Origin: a virus
Lineage: Duplodnaviria; Heunggongvirae; Uroviricota; Caudoviricetes
DNA: 49,389 nt
Virus record (IMG/VR): IMGVR_UViG_2851966386_000003
Location: 1 to 49,389 of that record
Strand: one strand, 5' to 3'
Shown: piece by piece, positions 1 to 20,904 of the stretch
How positions within the stretch are numbered: position 1 is the first letter of the stretch
How the letters are laid out: the number at the start of each line of letters is the position of its first letter
Program-made: the position numbers and the translations under genes
The notes under the pieces: generated by a model
Seen by the model: only the letters and a program-made list of their open reading frames with translations
What the model was told of the DNA's origin: nothing
Databases searched by the model: none

Positions 1-1188
1 TTGCTTACCGACACAAAATTAAGAAAAGCTCTTGGCAAAAAGAGAGACCAGATCGAGGTCATATCGGACGCTCATGGTCTGAATGTCCGGTTGTCTACTT
101 CCGGCAGTATAACATTCTTTTACCGCTACAGATGGAACGGGAAAGCCGCTCAGCTAACGATTGGCGATTATCCCACCACCTCCTTATCTCAAGCTCGCGA
201 ACGTAGACAGCAGTTCAGGGCGTGGTTGACAGAAGGACTCGATCCGAGACGGCAAACAGTTCTGGAGAAACAGAAAAAAGTCGAAGCGCTCACCGTTAAA
301 GAGGCTTTCGATTACTGGGAAAAGTATTACTGCATCCCTGAAGGTCTTGTGAAAATCAAGGTTAACCGACGGGACTTCAATAACCATATAGCGCCTGTGC
401 TGGGGAACATGATTGTTGATCAGACCACTAAAGCGCACTGGCTTAACCTTTTTGATGGCATGGGGCGAAGAGTTGTCACTGGTCAGATGCTTGGGCTGAT
501 GCAGCGTACGTTCCGTTTTTGCTCCAATCGAGGGGTAATTAATGTGAACCCAATTGAGAGCCTTAGGCGCTCTGACGTAGGTCTCACAGCATCCGTAAAA
601 GATCGCAGATTGAGTGATGAGGAAATCAAAACAGTTTGGAATATCCTTCCTGAATTGAAGTACAGACAACAGCTGATAATGAAGTTTCTCATCATGACTG
701 GCTGCCGGAGTACAGAGATCAGGACAGCAAGATGGGAGTGGTTCGATTTCCATGAGCAAACGTGGACCATTCCGGCAAGCGATTATAAAACCGGGAAATC
801 GGTCAGAAGGGCACTTCCCGAGGCAGTAGTAAGAATGATGTTAGCAGAGAAGGAAACGTCAGTTTCAAAACACGTTGTGACGCTGTCACGCTACAGAGGG
901 CCAGAAGATGACAGACCGCCACTACAACCAAACGTCGCTCTGTTTTCTGCTCAGATTATAGCTAAAACAGGCATGAAACCTTGGTCTCTCCATGACCTCA
1001 GGCGAACAGTGGCGACACGCCTTTCTGAATTAGGTGCGCCGCCACATGTTGTGGAAAAACTGCTTGGCCATCATATGGCAGGTGTCATGGCACGTTATAA
1101 CCTGCATGATTATCTGGATGATCAGCGTCACTGGCTTGCTGTTTGGCAGGATCACCTTGAGAAGCTGGTTGGTCAGCCTCTGGTTTGA
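1..1188 (+). CDS. int: Tyrosine integrase, P4-like family (start at or just beyond window edge)
   Basis: ORF 1..1188; C-terminal tyrosine-recombinase motifs (HDLRRT...LLGHH...ARYNLHDY) and N-terminal P4-int-like region; ORF opens with TTG at position 1 so true start uncertain. Confidence 0.85.
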   Translation: MLTDTKLRKALGKKRDQIEVISDAHGLNVRLSTSGSITFFYRYRWNGKAAQLTIGDYPTTSLSQARERRQQFRAWLTEGLDPRRQTVLEKQKKVEALTVKEAFDYWEKYYCIPEGLVKIKVNRRDFNNHIAPVLGNMIVDQTTKAHWLNLFDGMGRRVVTGQMLGLMQRTFRFCSNRGVINVNPIESLRRSDVGLTASVKDRRLSDEEIKTVWNILPELKYRQQLIMKFLIMTGCRSTEIRTARWEWFDFHEQTWTIPASDYKTGKSVRRALPEAVVRMMLAEKETSVSKHVVTLSRYRGPEDDRPPLQPNVALFSAQIIAKTGMKPWSLHDLRRTVATRLSELGAPPHVVEKLLGHHMAGVMARYNLHDYLDDQRHWLAVWQDHLEKLVGQPLV

Positions 1189-1399
1189 TCCCCACGTTAT
1201 CTTCCCAGGCCAACAAGTCTGAAAGTCTCCACCTTTTAGGGCTGCCATTTATTTTAGGCTGCGGGAATGGCTGAGCAAAGTACGAGGGCATCCGGGATGG
1301 GGTGCTCCAGAAATAAAGTGTGCTGCGCGATATTTTGTATCTGGACAGAACGTCATCGGTTATCAAAATTTCATCTGATTTATGAGATGTATTAGTCAT
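1085..1399 (-). CDS. AlpA/Xis-like DNA-binding protein (putative excisionase/regulator)
   Basis: 104-aa ORF with AlpA-type signature (ISRSTLYFW...KRWRLSDLLAWE); convergent 3' overlap with int. Confidence 0.6.
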   Translation of the reverse strand: MTNTSHKSDEILITDDVLSRYKISRSTLYFWSTPSRMPSYFAQPFPQPKINGSPKRWRLSDLLAWEDNVGIKPEADQPASQGDPAKQQASDADHPDNHAGYNVP

Positions 1400-1408
1400 A
1401 AAAACCCC

Positions 1409-1648
1409 TTAGTTACATTGTCCAGGCAGATGGTGTAGCCGGCGCGCGCAGCTCATGGCTGTGGCCACATAGCTACTTTTTCTGTTAACAACTTCTACAG
1501 TGATCTTTGAGCCTTGAACCACCACCGTATAAGTTCTCTTCGTTTTCTGTCGCCCGTAAGCTCCATAAAGCTCAATGTGTTTTGCCAGCGCGGCATCGCA
1601 CGCCTGGCGGCCCAGAGGGGAGTGTCTGCTTCGGTTAATCAATCGCAT
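1409..1648 (-). CDS. Hypothetical small protein (79 aa)
   Basis: ORF 1409..1654; second Met at 1648 is preceded by AAGGA at ~6 nt spacing; sits between alpA-like and recT. Confidence 0.35.
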   Translation of the reverse strand: MRLINRSRHSPLGRQACDAALAKHIELYGAYGRQKTKRTYTVVVQGSKITVEVVNRKSSYVATAMSCARRLHHLPGQCN

Positions 1649-1688
1649 ATACATTCCTTTATCGGGAGAGTTTCCTCTCCCGATCTGG

Positions 1689-2804
1689 TTAGCCCACGTA
1701 TTCCGGTTTCATGTCGTCCAGGGTGATGCGGAACTGGTCATAAAGTTCATCACCGAGGTGGCGTTTCGCGCCGTTGAGAATGCCTTCAGCTTTAGCAAAC
1801 AGTTCGACGGCTTCCCGTTCTCCGGGATTAGGTAGAGAGTTGATCGCGGCCTCAACTTTGTTTCTGGCGTCAACCATGAAATAACGCTGCACGGCTTTAC
1901 CTTTCAGCTCGGTGAAGAGAACAGTGCCCAGCACAGCTTTCTCTTTATCCAGATCCGCCCTGATGGCTTTTGCTGCATCGACCGATTCGGCGCGCTCAAT
2001 GCGGTCACGGAAATCATCTGCCAGGGAATCAATATTGAGAGCTGAATCCTGCGCGCTTGTGGTGATGTCTGTTCCGCTGGTGATCTCTGCCACAGACATT
2101 CTTTGCGCCGGCGTCGGGTTTATTTCTCGCTCGGTCCTTTGTTCAACCTCATCCGGGCTGTAAACACCCAGGATGACTTCCGGGCAATACAGCCGCGCCC
2201 AGTATTTGACGCCCAGATAAGCGATTTGCTGTTTCGGGTTAGAAACCCACAAAGGAGAATTACGTGTGACGACTCCAGAGAGATAAAGTGGCTCCCCCCA
2301 GGTGATTTCCGATTCACCGCGCAGAATCGCGCCGACCTGGACGAATAACCCGATTTCGTCCTCATCTGTCCAGCCTCGTACACGCTCGGTGACATTGTAT
2401 TTCCCGTTTTTGCCGTGCTTTTCCCGGGTGACCTCTTGAGTCCTGGTGCAGCGCTCCCAGTCGCCTCCGTAACGATAGTGAAAGCGGCCATGAATGGCGC
2501 TTGAGCTGGCGATTACCGCATTGACCAATTGGGCTTCATACCCAAGCACACCGTTTACCAGATGCGTTTTTTGCGCTACTGCGTAGGGATTCATGCCCCA
2601 TTGCATTGCCTGCATAACGATCGCCATGCAATCGGCTGGTTTACCCGCGAGGTGTGCAGGTACCGTCACCTGAGAATCTGCCATCAGGTTTGCAAATGCC
2701 GTTAGCTGGCCGAGCGCCTGCACGTTGAAGATGGCGTTACTGGCAGAAATGGTATTTGGAGCCTGTTGCTCAGTGGTAACAATATTGGTGTTTTCCATCG
2801 TCAT
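1689..2804 (-). CDS. recT: RecT/Bet-family single-strand annealing protein
   Basis: 371-aa ORF; central region resembles RecT/Bet SSAPs; immediately downstream of recE-like gene; AAGGGG SD upstream, alternative start at 2798. Confidence 0.8.
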   Translation of the reverse strand: MTMENTNIVTTEQQAPNTISASNAIFNVQALGQLTAFANLMADSQVTVPAHLAGKPADCMAIVMQAMQWGMNPYAVAQKTHLVNGVLGYEAQLVNAVIASSSAIHGRFHYRYGGDWERCTRTQEVTREKHGKNGKYNVTERVRGWTDEDEIGLFVQVGAILRGESEITWGEPLYLSGVVTRNSPLWVSNPKQQIAYLGVKYWARLYCPEVILGVYSPDEVEQRTEREINPTPAQRMSVAEITSGTDITTSAQDSALNIDSLADDFRDRIERAESVDAAKAIRADLDKEKAVLGTVLFTELKGKAVQRYFMVDARNKVEAAINSLPNPGEREAVELFAKAEGILNGAKRHLGDELYDQFRITLDDMKPEYVG

Positions 2805-2810
2805 ATCCCC

Positions 2811-5800
2811 TTATGCCTGTACGCGCAGCGCTTCGAGACGGCGCATATCAAAATCGTTAAGTTCTTCGGTGTAGTCTTCGGTAATCGGCGCCGGCCATTC
2901 GCCAGTGTCAAAACCGTTCGCGATGGCACGCATTGCTTTGCGATATTCCAGCATGCCGAGTTCCAGCAGTTCTTCGGATGCCTCGATGATGGCGATCCAG
3001 TGGTAGTTCTCGTCTTTGTTGACGAATATCCAGAAGAACTGGTCAAGGGCTGCGGTTTCGCAGTACATAGCCGCGCTCAGGTGGTAATCGCGCTCGATGA
3101 TTTCCCGGTGCAATTTGGCGCGCAGGCCTTCCTGCTTGATGTTCCACATGCTGATGGTTTTAAGGTCCGCACCGATGCGCAGGCCGCCCATGTCAATCTC
3201 AAGGTCAGGACGCACACGAACTTCCAGCCCGGTTTCCTCATCAATGCCGAAATAGCTCACCTCGACGGCACGGCTCGGGTGCGTCAACAACTTGCCGGCG
3301 GTCGGGTGGTTCAACAGTGCTTTCTGAATGGCAAGTGCCGTAGCCAGCTGCTGGCGGGTTACCAGCACTTTTCCTTCAGGGTTTTCGCGCCATGCATCCA
3401 GCAACTCATCGGCAAACACGGCATCCGGTTTAACCGATTTCACGGCCTGAATCAGATCCGCCTTAGTACCTGATACTTTCAGCGGCTGCGCCTTCTGTGC
3501 ATCCTGCGCAACCATGTCAGGATTAATAAGTGCCAGCTGTTCCAGTAAGGCATCGCGGCTACCGCTGGTTTTCACCTGGGCGGGCATGGTCGCGTTGTAT
3601 TCCTTGATGCATGCCTTCATAGCGGTGGCAGTTTGCTTCTGTCCGTCTTCAATGCGCTGGAACTCAGCAGGTAAAGACATATAACCTTGGCCGGTTTCTT
3701 CAACTGATGTACCCAAAGGAACCTGGGCGGGCAGGGTCGCGTTGTATTCCTCCAGGAATCTCTTGATGTCATCTGCGCTGAGCAAAACCGGAAGCCCGTT
3801 GTTGTACTCGTCGATAAACGCACGGATCGTCGCAGTCGTGGTGAATGCGCCTTCCGGGATTTCGGGCTCGATGCTGAATTCTTTTTCCAGTTGATCAGGT
3901 TGCAGCGCCAGTGCATGCACTAGATTTCCCATATCCAGAACAGGGGAGCGTACCTTCTGGATGGTCTTGGATACGTGGCGCGCCTCGAAATACATCAGCG
4001 ATACCCGGGCATCTTTAACCATCGTGGAGCTGATGCCGTTAGCGGCGTGGTAGACCTCATTTGGCACGCCTTCATATCGACCAGGCTCGAAATACTCCGG
4101 CCATGCTGGCGCTGCATGTTCAGCCTCTTCCTCTACATCGCTATGAGCACTCTCGGAAACCTGGCTTTTCAGCACTTCGGCGGTAAGATCCGGGCAGCGT
4201 TCAGCCAGTATTTTGCTCATGTTCACGGCAGTTGTTTGCGCAGGAGGCTCATCAGCGCCTTTGCCTGCTGATACCGCATTATCATTTTCGTCTTCGACCG
4301 GCTGAGCCGTTTCCATCTGCACATCGCTGGTGGTTTCCCCGGAATTAGCTGGATGTAATTTTTCTTCTGCAGCGCGCTGGCGCGCCTGGTCCACGATAGA
4401 AAGTGCTGGTGCTGGTGCTGGTGCTGGTGCTGGTGCTGGCTGGCTATCCATCAGACCATCAATCGAAAAAACACCATTGCCCATGTTTGAAACTTCAGGC
4501 TGTTTGGGCTTGGTCAGGTCTTCGGTTATCCACTTCGGATCCGTGGGGTCACTGATACCTTCGACATATTCACCACGTTCGGCGGCCAGAACCTGATTAG
4601 CGTCAGGACGTTTCTTTTGAGCTTCTTTCACCAGTTCGGTGCCAATTACCTGAAAGTCAGTTGGGATAGTTTCCAGGTCAGGTACACCTTCATCTCCATC
4701 GATAGCCTTTTTCACAGCGTCCAGAGTGACGGCGGCAGATGAAACATGACCAGCTTTCTCAAGCGTCTCAGCAGAAGGGGCGTCATGCTTATGCTCGGTC
4801 AGGTTCGCATTGATATAGGTCTGCAGACTTACCGGGAAATGATGAATATCGCTGGTGGCGCCACGAATAAGGGCAAAAATGGCGGCGCGGGAATAATCCA
4901 GGATGCCTGCAACCTTGCGCAGCGCTGCAGACCATTCCTTGAACGGACTTTCTTTCTTCTGGACGATCTCTTTGGCCCGGCGGTGAATTGATGCCGGGAA
5001 ATTGTAGATATCGAAATCCATTGGCATTGTGGCCAGGGCTATTTCTACATCGAGCGTATCAAGGGTATGGGTGTAGTCAGGGTTGCGATCGGTTTTATTA
5101 CTGCCGCCAGCATTCGTAACTGCATCGGTTTTCATAACTGAAGAAATGTAGTTACCGGCAGCCCATTCCCTGGTGAGAATGCCGCGGTCGATCGCGTTCG
5201 TGGCGAACCACAACTTTGCAAACTGAATACGTTTGCCGAGCTCATGCCGTTTCCCTTCCGGGAAGACTTTTTTATTGGCGCTGGTGAATTTCCAGAGCGC
5301 CGGCATATCGTATTTTTTGATTTCATGGACATTCTCGGCGGCCAGAATCAGGTCCTGAACGGCTGCGTTATCAGTGTCCATTTCAAGAACTGACAGCTCC
5401 TGCCGGTGAGGCATGCTGATATGATAAACGTGGCGTTCTTCGGCCATATACTGCGCCAGCAGCTGGGTGCGAAAGGGGAGTTCTGCCACGTTAAAAAGCG
5501 CGCTTGAATCGTTCTGGTATTCATCGCTACCGAAAGTTTCCACGGTCTCACCTTGTGCCGCGTCGACAGTGGTATAGGCATCAACCGGCTCGCCAGTAAC
5601 GGCCCCAGAGGTTACTCCGGCATCATCGTGATGAACATCAGCAGGCGCCTGTCCTGGCTTCAAAGTCCAGGTGCGGCCATCGTCGCCGAGCTGGTAGCGT
5701 TCGCACCATGAGTAATCGAGAACACCCTCCGCCGGCAGGTCGTTGAATACCGGGAAATCGGTGCGAATAGGTTTTTGATAGTCTTTGCCGCGGCCTGTTT

Positions 5801-5930
5801 CGATCCCAGCGTCTTCCAGATCGACGTCGAGCTGCAGTAGGGCGCGAGCTTCTGATTTATTAGTGCGCCAGATTACGGCATCAGCTTTACCCGATTTTTG
5901 AGTCGCTTTTATCAGATAAAAATATTCCAT
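2811..5930 (-). CDS. recE: RecE-like exodeoxyribonuclease VIII
   Basis: ORF 2811..5996; N-terminal region aligns by eye with E. coli RecE (FPVFNDLPAEGVLDYSWCERYQL...WTLKPGQAP); start moved to ATG 5930 preceded by AGAGG SD. Confidence 0.8.
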   Translation of the reverse strand: MEYFYLIKATQKSGKADAVIWRTNKSEARALLQLDVDLEDAGIETGRGKDYQKPIRTDFPVFNDLPAEGVLDYSWCERYQLGDDGRTWTLKPGQAPADVHHDDAGVTSGAVTGEPVDAYTTVDAAQGETVETFGSDEYQNDSSALFNVAELPFRTQLLAQYMAEERHVYHISMPHRQELSVLEMDTDNAAVQDLILAAENVHEIKKYDMPALWKFTSANKKVFPEGKRHELGKRIQFAKLWFATNAIDRGILTREWAAGNYISSVMKTDAVTNAGGSNKTDRNPDYTHTLDTLDVEIALATMPMDFDIYNFPASIHRRAKEIVQKKESPFKEWSAALRKVAGILDYSRAAIFALIRGATSDIHHFPVSLQTYINANLTEHKHDAPSAETLEKAGHVSSAAVTLDAVKKAIDGDEGVPDLETIPTDFQVIGTELVKEAQKKRPDANQVLAAERGEYVEGISDPTDPKWITEDLTKPKQPEVSNMGNGVFSIDGLMDSQPAPAPAPAPAPALSIVDQARQRAAEEKLHPANSGETTSDVQMETAQPVEDENDNAVSAGKGADEPPAQTTAVNMSKILAERCPDLTAEVLKSQVSESAHSDVEEEAEHAAPAWPEYFEPGRYEGVPNEVYHAANGISSTMVKDARVSLMYFEARHVSKTIQKVRSPVLDMGNLVHALALQPDQLEKEFSIEPEIPEGAFTTTATIRAFIDEYNNGLPVLLSADDIKRFLEEYNATLPAQVPLGTSVEETGQGYMSLPAEFQRIEDGQKQTATAMKACIKEYNATMPAQVKTSGSRDALLEQLALINPDMVAQDAQKAQPLKVSGTKADLIQAVKSVKPDAVFADELLDAWRENPEGKVLVTRQQLATALAIQKALLNHPTAGKLLTHPSRAVEVSYFGIDEETGLEVRVRPDLEIDMGGLRIGADLKTISMWNIKQEGLRAKLHREIIERDYHLSAAMYCETAALDQFFWIFVNKDENYHWIAIIEASEELLELGMLEYRKAMRAIANGFDTGEWPAPITEDYTEELNDFDMRRLEALRVQA
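4405..4440. repeat. (GCTGGT)x6 tandem hexanucleotide repeat inside recE, encoding (PA)n linker on minus strand
   Basis: gctggtgctggtgctggtgctggtgctggtgctggc read directly; minus-strand translation PAPAPAPAPAPA. Confidence 0.9.
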
Positions 5931-6067
5931 GTGATAGCCTCTATTTTGGATGTAAAATCCCCAGGGCCATTGGTAGCGCCCATTCAGGGTGGTCATTGGT
6001 TTTGGTAATTTCCGGTGTAACTTTGGTCGGTGGCACCGGACGTACAGCCCGCTTCGGCGGGTTTACG

Positions 6068-6223
6068 TTAGCCCTCGTGAGCCATCTGGTCGTGAGAAGC
6101 GCAACGTTCAGAGCAATACTCTTTTTCTTTCCGTGCGAGCTGGTTCCCCTGGAGGTACAACAGGGTGCTTACCACTGGTTTTCCCTCAATTGCTTTGCGG
6201 CAATAACCGCATTTCTTCTGCAT
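6068..6223 (-). CDS. Small Cys4 zinc-ribbon-like protein (51 aa), below ORF-track cutoff
   Basis: Manual minus-strand translation MQKKCGYCRKAIEGKPVVSTLLYLQGNQLARKEKEYCSERCASHDQMAHEG; CxxC...CxxxC pattern; weak SD. Confidence 0.35.
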   Translation of the reverse strand: MQKKCGYCRKAIEGKPVVSTLLYLQGNQLARKEKEYCSERCASHDQMAHEG

Positions 6224-6231
6224 TCTTCCGC

Positions 6232-6444
6232 CTACATTTGCACCGTGAACCCGGCCGGATGCTCGTCAAGTACACCTTTCAGCGGATAACATTCAGCTTT
6301 CACGTGTTGCTCTTCTGCAGCTGCCTTGCAGTCATTCTCAGTGTCGTAAACGCCGAGCAGGACATCCTGATTACCGCCCGTCAGCATGCTGACGGTGAGA
6401 ACCAGGGCGAATAGGCTTCCAGTCATAAAGTACCTGTTAACCAT
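6232..6444 (-). CDS. Small secreted/exported protein (signal-peptide-like N-terminus)
   Basis: 70-aa ORF; hydrophobic N-terminus MTGSLFALVLTVSMLTGG followed by polar region with two Cys; start ambiguous (6444 or 6426). Confidence 0.35.
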   Translation of the reverse strand: MVNRYFMTGSLFALVLTVSMLTGGNQDVLLGVYDTENDCKAAAEEQHVKAECYPLKGVLDEHPAGFTVQM

Positions 6445-15434: not shown

Positions 15435-15731
15435 ATGGCGAATCTTCGCAAAGCGGCCCGAGGCCGCGAATGCACAGTACGTATTCCTGGGTACTGCAAT
15501 GGCAATCCCGAAACCAGTGTGCTGGCGCATTACCGTCTGGCGGGAACGTGCGGCACAGGATGCAAGCCTGACGATACTCAGGGCGCTATTGCCTGCAGTG
15601 CTTGCCACGATCTCATTGATGGCAGAAAGAGAACCACCGATTACACCCGCGACGAACTGCGCCTGATGCATGCCGAAGGCGTGCTCAGAACTTTGGCTAT
15701 ATGGAAACAAGAGGGGTTACTGAAAGCATGA
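15435..15731 (+). CDS. YbcO-like Cys-rich putative nuclease
   Basis: Product resembles, from memory, DLP12 YbcO family (ANLRKAARGRECTVRIPGYCNGNPETSVLAH...ACSACHDLIDG); directly upstream of Q-like gene. Confidence 0.55.
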   Translation: MANLRKAARGRECTVRIPGYCNGNPETSVLAHYRLAGTCGTGCKPDDTQGAIACSACHDLIDGRKRTTDYTRDELRLMHAEGVLRTLAIWKQEGLLKA

Positions 15732-16543
15732 AACTCGAAGCATCCTTAAAACATTTCAGCCCTCAGGGTATGCACATCAGCGACGATGTGAGAAGCACAT
15801 CACCTGATCGCCTCAACGGTACGGATGTTATGGCTGGTATTGGGGTGACAAGCAGCAGGGCAAGGTTCGGACTGGCAGCGTTCTTTGGAAAGACTGGCAT
15901 CAGCAAGACTGATGAGCAGTTGGCCGTCCAGGCGCTAGCACGGTATGCGATTGAAACCGCACCGAAGAACGTACGCAAAACCGCGGGTAAAGAGCTGGGG
16001 CACTGCTGCCTGATTTTGGCGAAGTTTGCTTTTGCGGAGTATTCCCGTTCAGCTGAAACAACGGGAGCCTGCAGGGTATGTAATGGCACCGGACAGATTG
16101 AAACCACTACCACAGAACGCAAAGTTTCTAATCCGTGGGGCAAAGCACCATATTGGGCTAAAAAATCTCGTGCTGTCTGTCCTTCCGACTGGGATAAGTG
16201 GACTGAAGTCACAGCCGCCTTCAGCGCTAAGTGTGAAGCCTGTGACGGTAAGGGGAAAATAAATGCTCGCTGTCGCTGTGGTGGTTCTGGCCGGGTTCTG
16301 GACCGCAAAGCGACAAAAGAGCAGGGAGCACCAGTATATAAAATCTGTGAACGCTGTTCGGGGAATGGCTTTTCAACGATGCCGTCTACTGCTGCTTATA
16401 AAGCGATTCTGACGCTTATCCCAGACCTGCACATCAGAACATGGACACGCAACTGGAAACCTTTCTGCGATGCGCTGGTGGACCTGTGCTGGAAGGAAGA
16501 GGAGAGGGCAGATAAAGAGTTTCAACGAGCAACAGCTGATTGA
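15728..16543 (+). CDS. Putative late antiterminator Q, with four CxxCxGxG zinc-finger repeats
   Basis: Position upstream of pR'/tR'-like elements and lysis genes; repeats CRVCNGTGQ, CEACDGKGK, CRCGGSGR, CERCSGNGF; ATGA-coupled start. Confidence 0.55.
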   Translation: MKLEASLKHFSPQGMHISDDVRSTSPDRLNGTDVMAGIGVTSSRARFGLAAFFGKTGISKTDEQLAVQALARYAIETAPKNVRKTAGKELGHCCLILAKFAFAEYSRSAETTGACRVCNGTGQIETTTTERKVSNPWGKAPYWAKKSRAVCPSDWDKWTEVTAAFSAKCEACDGKGKINARCRCGGSGRVLDRKATKEQGAPVYKICERCSGNGFSTMPSTAAYKAILTLIPDLHIRTWTRNWKPFCDALVDLCWKEEERADKEFQRATAD

Positions 16544-16583: not shown

Positions 16584-16613
16584 TTGATTTTGTCCGAAGT
16601 TGTCGTGTATATT
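16584..16613 (+). promoter_or_regulatory. Candidate late promoter (pR'-like)
   Basis: TTGATT -N18- TATATT just downstream of Q-like gene and ~45 nt upstream of a terminator. Confidence 0.45.
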
Positions 16614-16654
16614 TTAAATCGTGGAATAAAACGCCTGAACGAAAACATTCATAT

Positions 16655-16688
16655 AAACCCTGCTACTGCAGGGTTTTGTGTTTTTGAA
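16655..16688 (+). terminator. Rho-independent terminator (tR'-like)
   Basis: aaaccctgc tact gcagggttt followed by tgtgttttt. Confidence 0.65.
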
Positions 16689-16795: not shown

Positions 16796-17422
16796 ATGGC
16801 GTTAAAAGATATTTTTGTGCGAACCGAACCTCACAGACGGCATTATGGTGTTGCATTGTTTATCGGGCTTATTTCTGGGGTGGTTTCAGCATTTGTTAAA
16901 TGGGGTGCAGAAGTACCATTACCACCGCGTAGTCCTGTCGATATGTTTACCAGTGCCTGTGGACCAGAGTCATTAATTCGAGCTGCCGGGCAGATTGATT
17001 GTTCCAGAAACTTCCTTAACCCTCCTTATATTTTTCTGCGTGATTGGTTAGGGCTGGCCGATCCAAATGCGGCTGTCTATACCTTTGCCGGACATGTGTT
17101 TAACTGGGTAGGTGTAACGCATATCATATTCTCCATCGTGTTTGCGGTTGGGTATTGTGTAGTTGCCGAGGTGTTTCCAAAAATCAAGCTGTGGCAGGGT
17201 TTACTTGCAGGTGCACTCGCACAACTGTTTGTCCATATGATTTCGTTTCCGCTTATGGGCCTAACCCCACCGTTGATTGAGCTTCCATGGTATGAAAACG
17301 TTTCTGAAATATTTGGTCACCTGGTGTGGTTCTGGTCAATTGAGATAATTCGCCGGGATCTGAGAAACAGAATTACGCACGAACCGGATGCTGAAGTTTC
17401 TCTGAATTCAGCATTCAGATAA
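16796..17422 (+). CDS. yagU: YagU-family inner membrane protein (DUF1440)
   Basis: 208-aa product near-identical over long stretches to E. coli YagU (from memory). Confidence 0.85.
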
Positions 17423-17440
17423 TCTAAGCTGCGAAGTCTG

Positions 17441-17468
17441 AAACCCGCATAAAATGCGGGTTTTTTAT
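17441..17468 (+). terminator. Rho-independent terminator after yagU
   Basis: aaacccgcat aaa atgcggg followed by ttttttat. Confidence 0.7.
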
Positions 17469-17548
17469 GCCTGTGATTAGTCGCTCTTCGATAGCAATGT
17501 ATGCAGAGTGTATTGACGCTAGCTATGTTTACAGCATAACGTATTGAT

Positions 17549-17657
17549 GTGGTGAATCCCCCTATGCGGAGGGGCGACCAGTCAGTTACAGAAACCTGTA
17601 AATGCAGCGCGGCCATGCCGACTGGGGCATGCTCACCGGGAGGCACCCGGCACCACA
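17549..17657 (+). repeat. Copy 1 of ~108-nt structured repeat element (candidate ncRNA or recombination site)
   Basis: gtggtgaatccccctatgcggaggggcgaccagtc...gactggggca...ccgggaggcacccggcaccaca; shares conserved 5' and 3' arms with copy at 20245..20351. Confidence 0.6.
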
Positions 17658-17816
17658 CTGCCACATAACATATTTAAGATTTATGGAAGGTTTACTTCTG
17701 CGGTTGCCCTTCTATGTTTATAGAACGTAACGGCAAAAGTGAATGCTTCCTGGTAAATCGGTAGCTCGGACTATTAGGAGTGGCTTCGTTTCGTTACTAC
17801 CTAGAATGCCTACTTT

Positions 17817-17844
17817 CTGCCCGCCTTCAGGCGGGCTTTTTTAC
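17817..17844 (+). terminator. Rho-independent terminator
   Basis: gcccgcc ttca ggcgggc followed by tttttt. Confidence 0.7.
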
Positions 17845-18020
17845 GCCATCAATAGGGCGCTTCAAGAGAAAAGGTAAATATCAGTTGAAGGCTGCGCTTT
17901 GCGTGGCCTTTCTTATTTCAGGCTCACAGAAATCATCATCGATACAGCGCGTTGTTAAATCAGCCCGATGGGCCTGACCCCTTTATTCACACAGCACCCC
18001 GTTAACCCGGAGGTGAACCT

Positions 18021-18332
18021 ATGGCAAAGCATATGCAAGACAAAGAGAGCATGGCCGGAATCACCTGGCTGGCTCTGCTGATCATTGCTGGTTGGGGCGG
18101 CCTTGTCCGATTCCTGATGGATGTGAAGCAGGGCAAAGCAAAATGGAGCTGGATAAATGCCTTTGCGCAGATAGTGGTCTCTGCTTTCACTGGCGTCATT
18201 GGTGGGCTAATCAGCATTGAAAGTGGGCTGAGTATTTACATGATACTGGCCACTGCCGGTGTCAGTGGTGCTATGGGATCCGTAGCGCTTACGTATTTCT
18301 GGGAACGAATTACCGGAGTGAAAGCACAATGA
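18021..18332 (+). CDS. Holin
   Basis: 103-aa product with TM segments and charged C-terminus, possible dual start (MAKHM); GGAGGTG SD; directly upstream of endolysin with ATGA overlap. Confidence 0.7.
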   Translation: MAKHMQDKESMAGITWLALLIIAGWGGLVRFLMDVKQGKAKWSWINAFAQIVVSAFTGVIGGLISIESGLSIYMILATAGVSGAMGSVALTYFWERITGVKAQ

Positions 18333-18868
18333 CAGCAGACCAGATTATTGAAGGCATCCTGGGAAAAGAAGGTGGGTATGTCGATCACCCTTCTGACAAA
18401 GGCGGACCAACCCGCTGGGGCATCACGCAGACCACAGCTCGAGCACATGGTTACACCGGTGATATGAGAAACCTGCCCAGGGAAACAGCAAAGCAAATTC
18501 TGCTCAGCGATTACTGGACCGGCCCCCGATTCGATCAGGTGGCAAGTTTATCTACGTTACTGGCAGATGAGCTTTGCGACACTGGTGTGAACATGGGGCC
18601 AAATATTGCCAGTAAGTTTTTCCAGCGCTGGCTCACTGCCCTTAACATGCGCGGGAAGTTGTATCCCGATCTGATCCCGGATGGAGCCATTGGCCCCCGA
18701 ACCATCACCGCGCTTAAGGGATATCTTTCTGCCCGCGGGAAAGAGGGGGAACAGGTTCTGTTGCGTGCGCTGAACTGCAGCCAGGGTGCCAGATACCTCG
18801 AACTGGCGGAGGGCCGCGAAGCCAACGAGGATTTTCTCTACGGCTGGGTTAAGGAGCGTGTCCTGTGA
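18329..18868 (+). CDS. Endolysin, GH108 N-acetylmuramidase with peptidoglycan-binding domain
   Basis: N-terminal GH108 signature (EGGYVDHPSDKGGPTRWGIT). Confidence 0.85.
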   Translation: MTADQIIEGILGKEGGYVDHPSDKGGPTRWGITQTTARAHGYTGDMRNLPRETAKQILLSDYWTGPRFDQVASLSTLLADELCDTGVNMGPNIASKFFQRWLTALNMRGKLYPDLIPDGAIGPRTITALKGYLSARGKEGEQVLLRALNCSQGARYLELAEGREANEDFLYGWVKERVL

Positions 18869-19212
18869 AGATGATCATTTTCGCTTTGCTCGTGCTGGTG
18901 GCTGTGCTCGTTCTGTTACTGCTGCGCAAATATACCCGGCTGGAGTTCGTTGCCCATGCCAGCCTGCTGCTGAAAACGTGGTCTGTAAAGCTGGGGGCTA
19001 TCGGTGCGCTGGTTGGCATGTGGGTGCAGTCGTTCCCGGATGCTGCGCTGCACGCCTGGGCGATGCTGCCGCCGGACATTAAAAACATTTTGCCTTCAAA
19101 CATCGTGGCACTGATTAGCCCTGCGCTGGTGGTGCTGGCGGTGCTTTCGCAATACGTACGCCAGCCAGCATTGAAAGCTAAGGCCGACAAACTGAAGGAG
19201 CCGCAGCAATGA
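18865..19212 (+). CDS. Lysis-associated membrane protein (possible antiholin/LysA-like)
   Basis: 115-aa product with two hydrophobic helices; lies between endolysin and spanins. Confidence 0.45.
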   Translation: MKMIIFALLVLVAVLVLLLLRKYTRLEFVAHASLLLKTWSVKLGAIGALVGMWVQSFPDAALHAWAMLPPDIKNILPSNIVALISPALVVLAVLSQYVRQPALKAKADKLKEPQQ

Positions 19213-19484
19213 GCTTAGAAATTATTGCTGGTCTGGTGGTCGTCATCCTGGGCGCTATCGCTGGCGCGTTCGGCATAGGTCATGCTCGCGGGACCAGTAA
19301 GGCGGAAGCCAAAGCCGAGCAGCAGCGTACCGAAGAGAACGCCACCGCTACCATCGCTGCGGCAGAACGTAAGGCGGAAGTTGTGAAAGGGGCCAGTGAT
19401 GTACAGGAAGACGTTAAGCGTATGGGCGATGACGATGTTGATCGCGAGCTGCGCGAAAAGTTTACCCGCCCCGGTAGTCGTTGA
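19209..19484 (+). CDS. i-spanin (Rz-like)
   Basis: N-terminal TM helix then charged, coiled-coil-like region; contains overlapping out-of-frame lipoprotein ORF. Confidence 0.55.
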   Translation: MSLEIIAGLVVVILGAIAGAFGIGHARGTSKAEAKAEQQRTEENATATIAAAERKAEVVKGASDVQEDVKRMGDDDVDRELREKFTRPGSR

Positions 19485-19620
19485 TATGGCCTGCGGCTGG
19501 GTGAGGGTCATCTACCTGACCGACCACGATATAGACGCGCTGGATATGCAGACCAAGCGTGACATCCTGGCGCACAACAAAGCAGTGCAGGCCAACTGTC
19601 CGAGCATTACCCTTAAATAA
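19396..19620 (+). CDS. o-spanin (Rz1-like lipoprotein)
   Basis: Out-of-frame ORF overlapping 3' end of i-spanin; lipobox LIASC after short signal peptide. Confidence 0.55.
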   Translation: MMYRKTLSVWAMTMLIASCAKSLPAPVVVDMACGWVRVIYLTDHDIDALDMQTKRDILAHNKAVQANCPSITLK

Positions 19621-19824
19621 GGGGAAATGCTCCAGTAAAACAGCGCGAATGCCAAACGTGCAGCGGTTATTAGCGGCGATGATGTGACAGGAACTCAAGG
19701 GCACGGGCGCAGAGCACTGCGAGAGTGTGGTTGTGTAATCAGGTCATGGATCTTGTGTATAGACGTTCTCTGCGACACCAGGGTGACTTAGGCCTTCTTA
19801 CTGGAAGGCGGTAGTTAGAAAGCA

Positions 19825-19853
19825 GGGGTAGTGCCGGTTGACTACCCCTTTTG
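19825..19853 (+). terminator. Rho-independent terminator after lysis cassette
   Basis: ggggtag tgccggttga ctacccc followed by ttttgtg. Confidence 0.65.
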
Positions 19854-19871
19854 TGCAGAATTGGGTAAAAG

Positions 19872-19991
19872 TTAATACCTTTTTTTAAAAGTATTTTTAT
19901 ATTTCTTCGTTTCTCGCAAGTATGAAACCAGTGAACCCACTGCAACTAAAAGAAGAACTACAGCTAACGCTATCATCAGTATGGTTGTCAT
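19872..19991 (-). CDS. Small hydrophobic protein (39 aa), below ORF-track cutoff; type I toxin-like architecture
   Basis: Manual minus-strand translation MTTILMIALAVVLLLVAVGSLVSYLRETKKYKNTFKKRY; AGGAGGG SD 9 nt upstream; one TM helix plus basic tail. Confidence 0.4.
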   Translation of the reverse strand: MTTILMIALAVVLLLVAVGSLVSYLRETKKYKNTFKKRY

Positions 19992-20244
19992 GTGAGTTAA
20001 CCCTCCTAGGGACCATGGATATTATGGTTCGCATGAGGGGTAGTGTGGGATTTAAGTGAGAAAATTCCTAACTGGAATTTTTTCTTAATTTGAAACCTGA
20101 TATGAAACTTTATTGTTGGTTTTGTAATGATTCAATATGAAATGATTAATTATTGTCTGCCAGGATATACAGTTTTCCGAAAGAGGTGTTTTTACTGGTT
20201 ACATCGGATTGACTATGCACTTATCGCATAGCTAATGTAGATGC

Positions 20245-20351
20245 GTGGTGAATCCCCCTGTGCGGTGGGGCGACCAGCCAGGTTTTCTCTTTGAGCACAC
20301 ACGCAGGTCTGTTGGCTGGGGCAGACTTACCGGGAGGCACCCGGCACCACA
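20245..20351 (+). repeat. Copy 2 of ~108-nt structured repeat element
   Basis: gtggtgaatccccctgtgcggtggggcgaccagcc...ggctggggca...ccgggaggcacccggcaccaca; possible hairpin terminator at 20371-20397. Confidence 0.6.
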
Positions 20352-20544
20352 ACATACTGCATAACCCCATAAAGGCCTTCCATTACGGTAGGCCTTTTCT
20401 CTTCTGGTTGTATCTAATACTGTGGGCAGGTCAGCTGGCTTATGCAGGACAGATTATTTTTTCTTATTGAATGCCGCTTCTGGTGTGCTTATATTCTACC
20501 TAAAAATGGGTAGGTGTGTTGTGATTAGAAAATGCTATGCAAGA

Positions 20545-20904
20545 ATGTCTGACCCAGCATCAAATGACAAGCTGACACTGGAAATGCTTGTAACTGACGG
20601 TGGGCGTAAGATTTTTATCTGGGATTTTGATAAAGGGGTGGCAATTTTCTCTGAGGGTATAACAGGTAAGCAGTCTAAATACATAGTGCAAGGTGAAAAG
20701 CATGCAGGGCATATCAATCTTATCAGAGATAATACGATTGAGCGCACTATTTATGGGGTTAAGGAGCTCACCTGTGGAAATGGTGATTCCGGTAAATCCT
20801 CTCCTGTGTTTTGCTCATTGTGCGAGGGGCAGATACTCATAATCGAATGCCAAAAGGCTTTTATAAGAAAACCATTAAGGCTTGATGAACTCACCTTTGA
20901 ATAG
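20545..20904 (+). CDS. Hypothetical protein, AT-rich moron (start uncertain)
   Basis: ORF 20422..20904; weak SD; AT-rich. Confidence 0.3.
   Translation: MSDPASNDKLTLEMLVTDGGRKIFIWDFDKGVAIFSEGITGKQSKYIVQGEKHAGHINLIRDNTIERTIYGVKELTCGNGDSGKSSPVFCSLCEGQILIIECQKAFIRKPLRLDELTFE

Follow-up and report, generated by a model that had tools for sequence, protein, structure and literature searches.

The 49,389-nucleotide (nt) stretch of DNA analysed here in full (hereinafter the window; virus record IMGVR_UViG_2851966386_000003, Caudoviricetes) carries two paralogous copies of a known, functionally uncharacterised prophage small RNA (sRNA) gene, STnc100, a relative of PasD. A search of the window with the Rfam models yields exactly two matches, both to RF02076 (STnc100), namely copy A at 17518-17721 (71.9 bits, E 1.7e-13) and copy B at 20217-20405 (81.5 bits, E 5.9e-16), each aligned over model positions 1-206. 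Both scores exceed the curated gathering score of the family (47 bits), and chance is excluded for either copy by these E-values. The same two elements are the only matches in the window to our own covariance model, R1, which was built from 40 family representatives (17546-17659, 105.2 bits, and 20242-20353, 99.8 bits).

A sequence-only reading of the window had placed these repeats correctly, at 17549-17657 and 20245-20351, and its description of the shared 5' arm (GTGGTGAATCCCCCT.TGCGG.GGGGCGACCAG) and 3' arm (CTGGGGCA...CCGGGAGGCACCCGGCACCAC) was accurate. It proposed either a phage non-coding RNA family or a structured recombination site, to be examined by a covariance-model search (Rfam/Infernal) and by an alignment of homologues. 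The search, now run, assigns both copies to RF02076 above threshold; the non-coding RNA family is the right one of the two proposals, and the statement that no known family could be matched was mistaken. STnc100 is already catalogued and experimentally detected, and the window adds to it two members from a Klebsiella phage, so that the result is mainly a correct annotation of two sRNA genes rather than of a new class of elements. Similarly to STnc100 elsewhere, the copies reside in lambdoid prophage or phage DNA of enterobacteria (the window encodes Q, holin, endolysin and spanin), occupy the late region and match the full model above threshold; they differ in belonging to a Klebsiella phage, in their inserts and linkers, and in that unit A lacks a good proximal terminator.

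Fold of the RNA and its covariation

In total, 121 unique elements were collected and assigned to 41 classes, and 40 class representatives, from Enterobacteriaceae and Pantoea, were aligned with MAFFT. Pairs were counted for a structure of five nested helices and one pseudoknot (33 base pairs). The fraction of paired cells is 84.8%, compared with 77.4% in column shuffles, none of which reaches the observed value in 500 trials, and with 42-49% in controls with slid partners. Changes on both sides are found in 25 of the 33 pairs (shuffle mean 15.7), a count that is likewise reached by none of 500 shuffles. The selection on secondary structure that had been proposed from the two copies is thus strongly supported by the homologues. 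The helices are as follows.

P1: closing helix GUGGUG/CACCAC, with the variants CGGUG/CACCG, CAGUG/CACUG and CUAUG/CAUAG; 6 of 7 pairs covary
P2: hairpin CCCCCU..GG.GGGG; invariant and so uninformative for covariation
P3: pseudoknot; 6 of 6 pairs covary
P5: local hairpin; 9 of 9 pairs covary
P6: hairpin CCGGG-AGGCA-CCCGG, with the variants CGGAG/CUCCG and CCAGG/CCUGG; 4 of 5 pairs covary

The pairing of the terminal gtggtg and caccac, pointed out in the sequence-only reading, is real and corresponds to P1. The compensating T:A versus C:G difference between the two copies (ccagTc/gActgg versus ccagCc/ggCtgg) is genuine as well and maps to pair 37-124 of the alignment, within P3; the helix indeed covaries, but it is a pseudoknot and not a simple nested stem. 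P3 forms between a 5' strand that comes after P2 and the 6-nt loop of P5; because the 3' strand is located in this loop, the helix is a pseudoknot. Combinations of strand and loop found in the family include CCAGUC with GACUGG, CUAGAC with GUCUAG, CUGGUG with CACCAG, and UUUGAUCG with CGAUCAAA, and across the 41 classes the cognate partners are more complementary than shuffled ones (permutation p <= 4e-4). Thus, P3 is a pseudoknot or an alternative pairing. It is not part of the Rfam RF02076 consensus, which also counts approximately 30 nt of the promoter as RNA.

Between P3 and a conserved CGCR motif, there is a hypervariable insert of 13-45 nt that is AT-richer than the rest of the element. 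The centre of approximately 35 nt that had been taken to be unrelated between the two copies does contain such an insert, of 21-23 nt, but it also includes the CGCR motif and the structurally equivalent hairpin P5. The GAAU motif, the NNGCGG loop of P2, CGCR and AGGCA are invariant across Enterobacteriaceae and Pantoea, whereas the helices covary. That the structure is read on the late-sense strand is shown by the many G-U pairs of the helices, each of which would become a C-A mismatch on the opposite strand. Minimum free energy folding of the single copies yields weak z-scores (-2.0 and -0.4) that are no evidence either way, and single-sequence folding misses the pseudoknot. When the core was compared with Rfam at E <= 10, no other family was found, including ribozymes, riboswitches, protein-binding RNAs, C4 and isrK. 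The two units consist of the following parts.

Unit A, all on the plus strand:
17513-17542: promoter, with -35 TTGACG (17513-17518), an 18-nt spacer and -10 TAACGT (17537-17542); predicted +1 at G17549 (sequence and family profile)
17548-17657: core (Rfam, R1 and covariation)
17548-17554 with 17651-17657: P1
17558-17574: P2
17578-17583 with 17620-17625: P3, 5' strand CCAGUC and 3' strand GACUGG (the P5 loop)
17584-17606: variable insert, followed by CGCGG at 17607-17611
17611-17619 with 17626-17634: P5
17636-17650: P6, loop AGGCA
17658-17720: linker, weak hairpin (GGAAGG 17685-17690 with CCCTTC 17707-17712) and U-rich tail
17819-17842: strong intrinsic terminator (terminator prediction), co-inherited with A-type units
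17887-17911: further terminator, before the holin gene

Unit B, all on the plus strand:
20209-20238: promoter, with -35 TTGACT (20209-20214), an 18-nt spacer and -10 TAATGT (20233-20238); predicted +1 at G20245 (sequence and family profile)
20245-20350: core (Rfam, R1 and covariation)
20245-20250 with 20345-20350: P1
20254-20270: P2
20274-20279 with 20314-20319: P3, 5' strand CCAGCC and 3' strand GGCUGG (the P5 loop)
20280-20300: insert
20305-20313 with 20320-20328: P5
20330-20344: P6
20351-20405: single-stranded linker AACAUACUGCAUAACCCCAU and intrinsic terminator AAAGGCCUUCC-AUUA-CGGUAGGCCUUUUCUCUUCU; predicted RNA of ~159 nt

Promoters, terminators and the late region

Each copy appears to possess a conserved sigma-70 promoter, with the +1 position predicted at the first base of the closing helix. 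In a profile of 68 distinct upstream contexts, the -10 element TAnnnT occupies positions -17 to -12 from the G of GAAU (A in 59, T in 45 and T in 47 of the 68), and the TT of the -35 element TTGAC is located at -41/-40 (T at -40 in 53 of the 68). The 18-nt spacer and the start at the first G of P1 follow from these positions. An intrinsic-terminator-like hairpin is present within 120 nt of the core in 51 of 86 distinct downstream contexts. The predicted RNA lengths form a cluster at 150-175 nt, which includes B, and a second one at 275-300 nt, to which A belongs if its RNA ends at 17842. The claim that each copy is followed by a hairpin holds well for B, where an intrinsic terminator is located at ~20371-20405, but less so for A, with its weak hairpin at 17685-17720. 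The Rfam alignment of unit A extends to 17721 with several non-standard pairs, and 17658-17720 corresponds in position to the portion of PasD that comprises the seed and the terminator. Position 17842 is probably the 3' end of an A transcript of ~293 nt. The segment 17745-17842, co-inherited with A-type units, contains a 5' hairpin (GCUUCCUGGUAAAUCGGUAGC) and the strong terminator, and shows a weak, subthreshold isrK-like match (17745-17841, 18 bits, E 0.07); either a second small RNA or the 3' portion of the longer A transcript may be encoded here.

With Klebsiella phage ST13-OXA48phi12.4 as its best relative (94.7% identity), the window represents a lambdoid phage or prophage of Klebsiella. 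The features that surround the two units are listed below.

15701-16543, plus strand: lambda-type antiterminator Q, matched by Pfam PF03589 in two stretches (E 2.6e-49) and sharing 33.8% identity with lambda Q over 96% of its length
16584-16686, plus strand: probable pR'-tR' right after Q, with TTGATT-18-TATATT (16584-16613) and a terminator hairpin with a T-run (16655-16686)
16796-17422, after tR' and before unit A: moron encoding a DUF1440 membrane protein (phrog_25162); a terminator of its own is located at 17440-17466
18021-19484, plus strand: lysis cassette between the units, encoding holin, GH108 endolysin, a holin-like protein and an Rz-like spanin
20422-20904, after unit B: open reading frame (ORF) of 160 amino acids (aa), function unknown (phrog_27982)

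The TTGATT/TATATT motif is also found directly after Q in one other locus (L029), and in five further loci (L061, L022, L106, L030 and L037) the Q stop codon is immediately followed by a lambda-like TTTACT/TTAATT promoter, a sigma-dependent pause motif (AACGATGGG) and a terminator. In these relatives, the STnc100 unit, with a promoter of its own, is located 100-450 nt beyond the late promoter and terminator. The DUF1440 moron is missing from some relatives, in which the distance from Q to the unit is 200-460 nt. Given the distinct pR'-tR' right after Q and the units' own promoters, the units are separate modules in the late operon. For the same reason, the possibility that copy A, which follows Q, is a pR' leader or 6S-like RNA was rejected: here and in the relatives, a separate pR'-tR' is found after Q. 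The units resemble lambda 6S RNA and StxS as small RNAs of the late region in lysogens that are located upstream of lysis genes and read through by Q-modified polymerase; they differ in that 6S RNA and StxS are pR'-tR' transcripts whereas the units have promoters apart from pR'.

The approximately 720 nt between the spanin gene and the -35 element of unit B (19485-20208) are devoid of a convincing ORF and contain a terminator-like hairpin (20058-20084) as well as mosaic breakpoints relative to other phages; in the corresponding region, MK422450 has different small ORFs, including one for a TonB-family protein.

Distribution and relationship to PasD

An exact-pattern scan of viral contigs retrieves at least 120 loci, and a looser pattern applied to one genome per species retrieves 46 true loci along with 4 chance matches that lack the 3' block. 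The genera represented in the looser scan are Klebsiella, Enterobacter, Citrobacter, Leclercia, Kluyvera, Salmonella, Superficieibacter, Trabulsiella, Kosakonia, Raoultella, Mangrovibacter, Buttiauxella and Pantoea. Among complete E. coli genomes, the element is present, unannotated, in 1466 of 5426 (27%), with a median of 2 and a maximum of 8 copies as detected by BLAST. Phage records that contain it number 186, among them those of Stx1a and Stx2 phages and of H-19B; in a Stx2a phage, the unit is located ~75 nt after stx2B (Rfam 153.8 bits), in agreement with PMC12370729.

The genomic position is highly constrained. Among the 120 viral matches listed, Q homologues within 4 kb of a unit are always upstream and on the same strand, and among the matches listed, holin homologues near promoter-proximal (A-type) units are always downstream and on the same strand. 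In the set with one genome per species (loci L123-L172), the nearest downstream ORF is a holin, of five unrelated Pfam families, in ~16 of 44 contexts, and among the nearest upstream ORFs are those for Q, from three Pfam families, and for morons (Ail/Lom, OspG kinase, DUF1440). Copy B of the window has the lysis cassette upstream, whereas in other phages units of both types precede the holin gene. The bracketing of the lysis cassette by two copies, which had been emphasised from the sequence, is thus true of the window but is not a property of the family: MK422450, the closest relative, lacks copy B, and this copy is present or absent among close relatives. In several genomes, two or three complete units are repeated in tandem every ~250-260 nt (L134 4072-4605, L148 425-954, L124 1372-1651, L150 2495-2774, and L029/L030); the units of such an array differ from one another in the insert and in the P3 sequence, and each is equipped with a -10 element and a terminator. 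In two loci, the units are located among tRNA genes (L170 ~3640-3900 and L172 ~4180-4400); in L172, the 3' end of a tRNA (..GGCACCA) is 11 nt before the unit, and a tRNA-like sequence follows it. Given this arrangement, co-processing with tRNAs is possible.

Members of the family are expressed. STnc100 copies of S. Typhimurium LT2 show RpoD signal in ChIP-exo (PMC10794520), and in E. coli EDL933 there are 11 Rfam-annotated copies, most of them with ~330-6,400 transcriptome reads and reads per kilobase per million (RPKM) values of up to ~1900; one of these, STnc100_4, was positive in northern analysis (PMC5331693). PasD1 and PasD2 of enteropathogenic E. coli (EPEC) have been reported to be related to STnc100, their function not being elucidated (Zhu, Shabalina and Storz 2026, bioRxiv 10.64898/2026.05.13.724894); P3 is not mentioned in the RNAalifold-based preprint. 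PasD1 (NC_011601 1060260-1060432) is a homologue of EcOnc13, with the target motif CUCACA, and PasD is abundant, validated by northern analysis and forms chimeras in Hfq RIL-seq (Pearl Mizrahi et al., PMC8550237). The PasD seed, UGUGAG, is located in the linker between P1 and the terminator, outside the core.

The 5' end of PasD1 estimated by RNA-seq (NC_011601 1060260, GCAUGGUGAAUCC) coincides with the predicted start of P1 and is preceded by TTGACT...TAAAAA. PasD1 retains P1, a shortened P2 (CCUCC/GGAGG), P5 and P3, the latter formed by AAUGAUCGA with UUGAUCAUU in the loop of GUUCUG/CAGAAC, whereas P6 is degenerate. It scores 18.5 bits with R1 (E 5.6e-4) and falls below the Rfam RF02076 threshold. 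PasD1/PasD2 of EPEC E2348/69 (EcOnc13 in enterohaemorrhagic E. coli, EHEC) share with the window copies the promoter geometry, the 5' end and the position after Q and before the holin gene, and differ from them in the shortened P2, the degenerate P6 and the seed, which the window copies lack. PasD is a sister lineage and not the same RNA as the window copies. In RefSeq, a hypothetical protein is annotated antisense to PasD1 (L174 1961-2133).

Possible functions of the units

Each copy is probably an independent STnc100/PasD-family sRNA gene that a lambdoid Klebsiella prophage carries in its late region as an "sRNA moron", the independence being indicated by the units' own promoters and terminators, by the separate pR'-tR' and by the tandem arrays of complete units elsewhere in the family. 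Under this scenario, a sigma-70 promoter (-35 TTGAC, 18-nt spacer, -10 TAAnnT) would start the RNA at the first G of P1, and the first ~108 nt would fold into a compact core that consists of P1, the invariant P2, the pseudoknot P3, P5 and P6 with its invariant AGGCA loop, with the hypervariable insert inside the core and a single-stranded linker and intrinsic terminator after it. In a lysogen, the promoter is probably active and the terminator, either that of the unit itself or the next one, would release a discrete RNA, with a predicted length of ~159 nt in the case of B and of at most ~293 nt in that of A. Once the prophage is induced, Q-modified polymerase coming from the separate pR' would transcribe across the two units. 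As the example of PasD suggests, the RNA most likely would act in trans, carried by Hfq and pairing with mRNAs via the linker just 5' of the terminator, with the core as a 5' structural domain that would bury the 5' end and stabilise the RNA. That both Klebsiella copies are active, what they target and what the core does is inferred, whereas the data on the PasD seed, on association with Hfq, on binding of RpoD and on the expression of members of the family come from the studies cited above; the present analysis itself establishes the family membership, the fold, the conservation of promoter and terminator, the separation from pR' and the genomic position.

Several observations count against this interpretation. 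The detected members of the family are limited to E. coli and Salmonella, the expression of the Klebsiella copies being a prediction, and unit A has no more than a weak hairpin at the place that the terminator occupies in other members. The UGUGAG seed is not found in the linkers of the window copies, the linkers of A and B being unlike the PasD seed, and no validated target for any STnc100 member was found in the searchable literature; for the PasD targets, no regulatory effect has been shown. PasD1 and PasD2 are among the most abundant sRNAs of EPEC and are not reduced in the delta-hfq strain (log2 fold changes of -0.18 and +0.55), whereas PasA, PasB, PasC, MgrR and McaS are all down by 2-7 log2 units in the delta-hfq RNA-seq; because the levels of PasD1 and PasD2 are unchanged, the Hfq dependence of PasD is weaker than that of canonical sRNAs. 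Furthermore, invariant loops and junctions combined with covarying helices across genera would be unusual for a domain that merely stabilises the RNA, and therefore a specific partner is suggested.

The latter two observations lead to a different, rather unlikely possibility, namely that the conserved pseudoknotted core is itself the functional module, which would bind a host or phage protein or a ligand as a decoy, sponge or scaffold, the Hfq chimeras being secondary. The invariance of GAAU, NNGCGG, CGCR and AGGCA and the Hfq-independent abundance of PasD are compatible with such a role, and the presence of up to 8 (BLAST, E. coli) or 11 (EDL933) copies, along with the tandem arrays, would suit titration of a partner. 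However, no partner is known, no protein-binding or catalytic RNA family of Rfam matches the core at E <= 10, and PasD, despite its degenerate P6 and shortened P2, is still abundant and found on Hfq in RIL-seq chimeras. A combined version, to be entertained with equal caution, is that STnc100 is a modular RNA in which the core would bind a conserved factor of the cell or the phage independently of Hfq and the insert or linker would give each copy its specificity, with multiple copies or tandem arrays located immediately upstream of the lysis genes of lambdoid prophages. An action in cis on the late operon is considered improbable, whether through processing or stabilisation of the read-through late mRNA, as a leader similar to a riboswitch, or through put-like antitermination that would control the holin or downstream genes. 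The constant position, between Q of three families or morons and holins of five unrelated families, and the layout of promoter, structured RNA and terminator, which is that of a transcriptional riboswitch, would be expected under such a model, but the holin-proximal position fits equally the usual niche of morons between tR' and the lysis genes. The downstream genes vary (holins, the 160-aa ORF, tRNAs or further units), tandem units each have their own promoter and terminator, inspection by eye reveals no conserved alternative pairing between P1 and the terminators, and R1 finds nothing in HK022, putL and putR included. Moreover, were a constitutive promoter to feed an antiterminator ahead of the lysis genes, the lysogen would be killed.

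Least of all is to be expected from a role at the DNA level, which appears highly improbable. The sequence-only reading had offered an attC- or MITE-like site, and, more generally, the copies could be module-boundary elements or homology linkers that mark exchange of the lysis cassette. Homology between mosaic phages does begin sharply at the unit promoter, copy B comes and goes among close relatives, and arms of 28-30 nt that are identical in unrelated phages could aid homologous recombination as a by-product. The breakpoint clustering is uninformative in this respect, though, because the loci were chosen for containing the element. All copies point in the direction of late transcription, the structure, with its many G-U pairs, is specific to one strand, the promoter and terminator are conserved, and RNAs have been detected; no sign of an integron integrase, of terminal inverted repeats or of target-site duplications was seen. 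The attC-/MITE-like site is thus left without support.

Several more specific candidates were rejected. HK022 putL/putR resemble the units as structured, promoter-proximal phage RNAs upstream of terminators; they consist of two stem-loops in early operons and lack similarity in sequence or structure. A put-like antiterminator of the HK022 type was dismissed given that putL/putR share only a 10-mer (CGGGUUCAGG) with the E. coli class and that R1 yields no match in the whole HK022 genome at E <= 10. A tRNA- or tmRNA-like nature, which the closing helix, the hairpin abutting the 3' strand and the CACCA end might bring to mind, is contradicted by ARAGORN (0 genes in the window) and by Rfam, which shows no such match. 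Alternative pairing of the riboswitch type, through a CAUGGUG repeat after P1, is limited to some E. coli copies and is not general. The linker of unit B contains a motif (CACAACAU) that could make it a GcvB sponge, but the motif is not kept in other B-type copies.

The C4 and P4 CI RNAs are small phage RNAs with a closing helix of 5' and 3' strands, in which respect they are similar to the units. They differ in that the unit core has no Rfam match to C4 or isrK at E <= 10. Self-targeting antisense action of the P1 C4 or P4 CI type was likewise rejected: the complementarity of unit A to the window is at the level of shuffled sequences (maximum 11 nt), and unit B has a single 15-mer, in a structured part of the RNA. 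This 15-nt identity (GCAGACTTACCGGGA), between 4823-4837 and the unit B core at 20321-20335, lies inside a minus-strand ORF of 1061 aa (2811-5996), the mRNA of which would be complementary to the unit B RNA at this site. Approximately 0.015 such matches are expected by chance; nevertheless, the match is probably due to chance.

Altogether, STnc100 appears as a widespread family, found in 27% of the complete E. coli genomes and in prophages of Klebsiella, Salmonella, Enterobacter, Citrobacter and Pantoea, with units located directly after stx1 or stx2 in Shiga-toxin phages. These RNAs are abundant in lysogens, mostly unannotated and functionally uncharacterised. The pseudoknot, the exact geometry of the promoter and the predicted +1, and the separation of the units from pR' are new with respect to the searchable literature and would be useful for the design of mutants and for finding partners and targets; the structural link to PasD adds further value.

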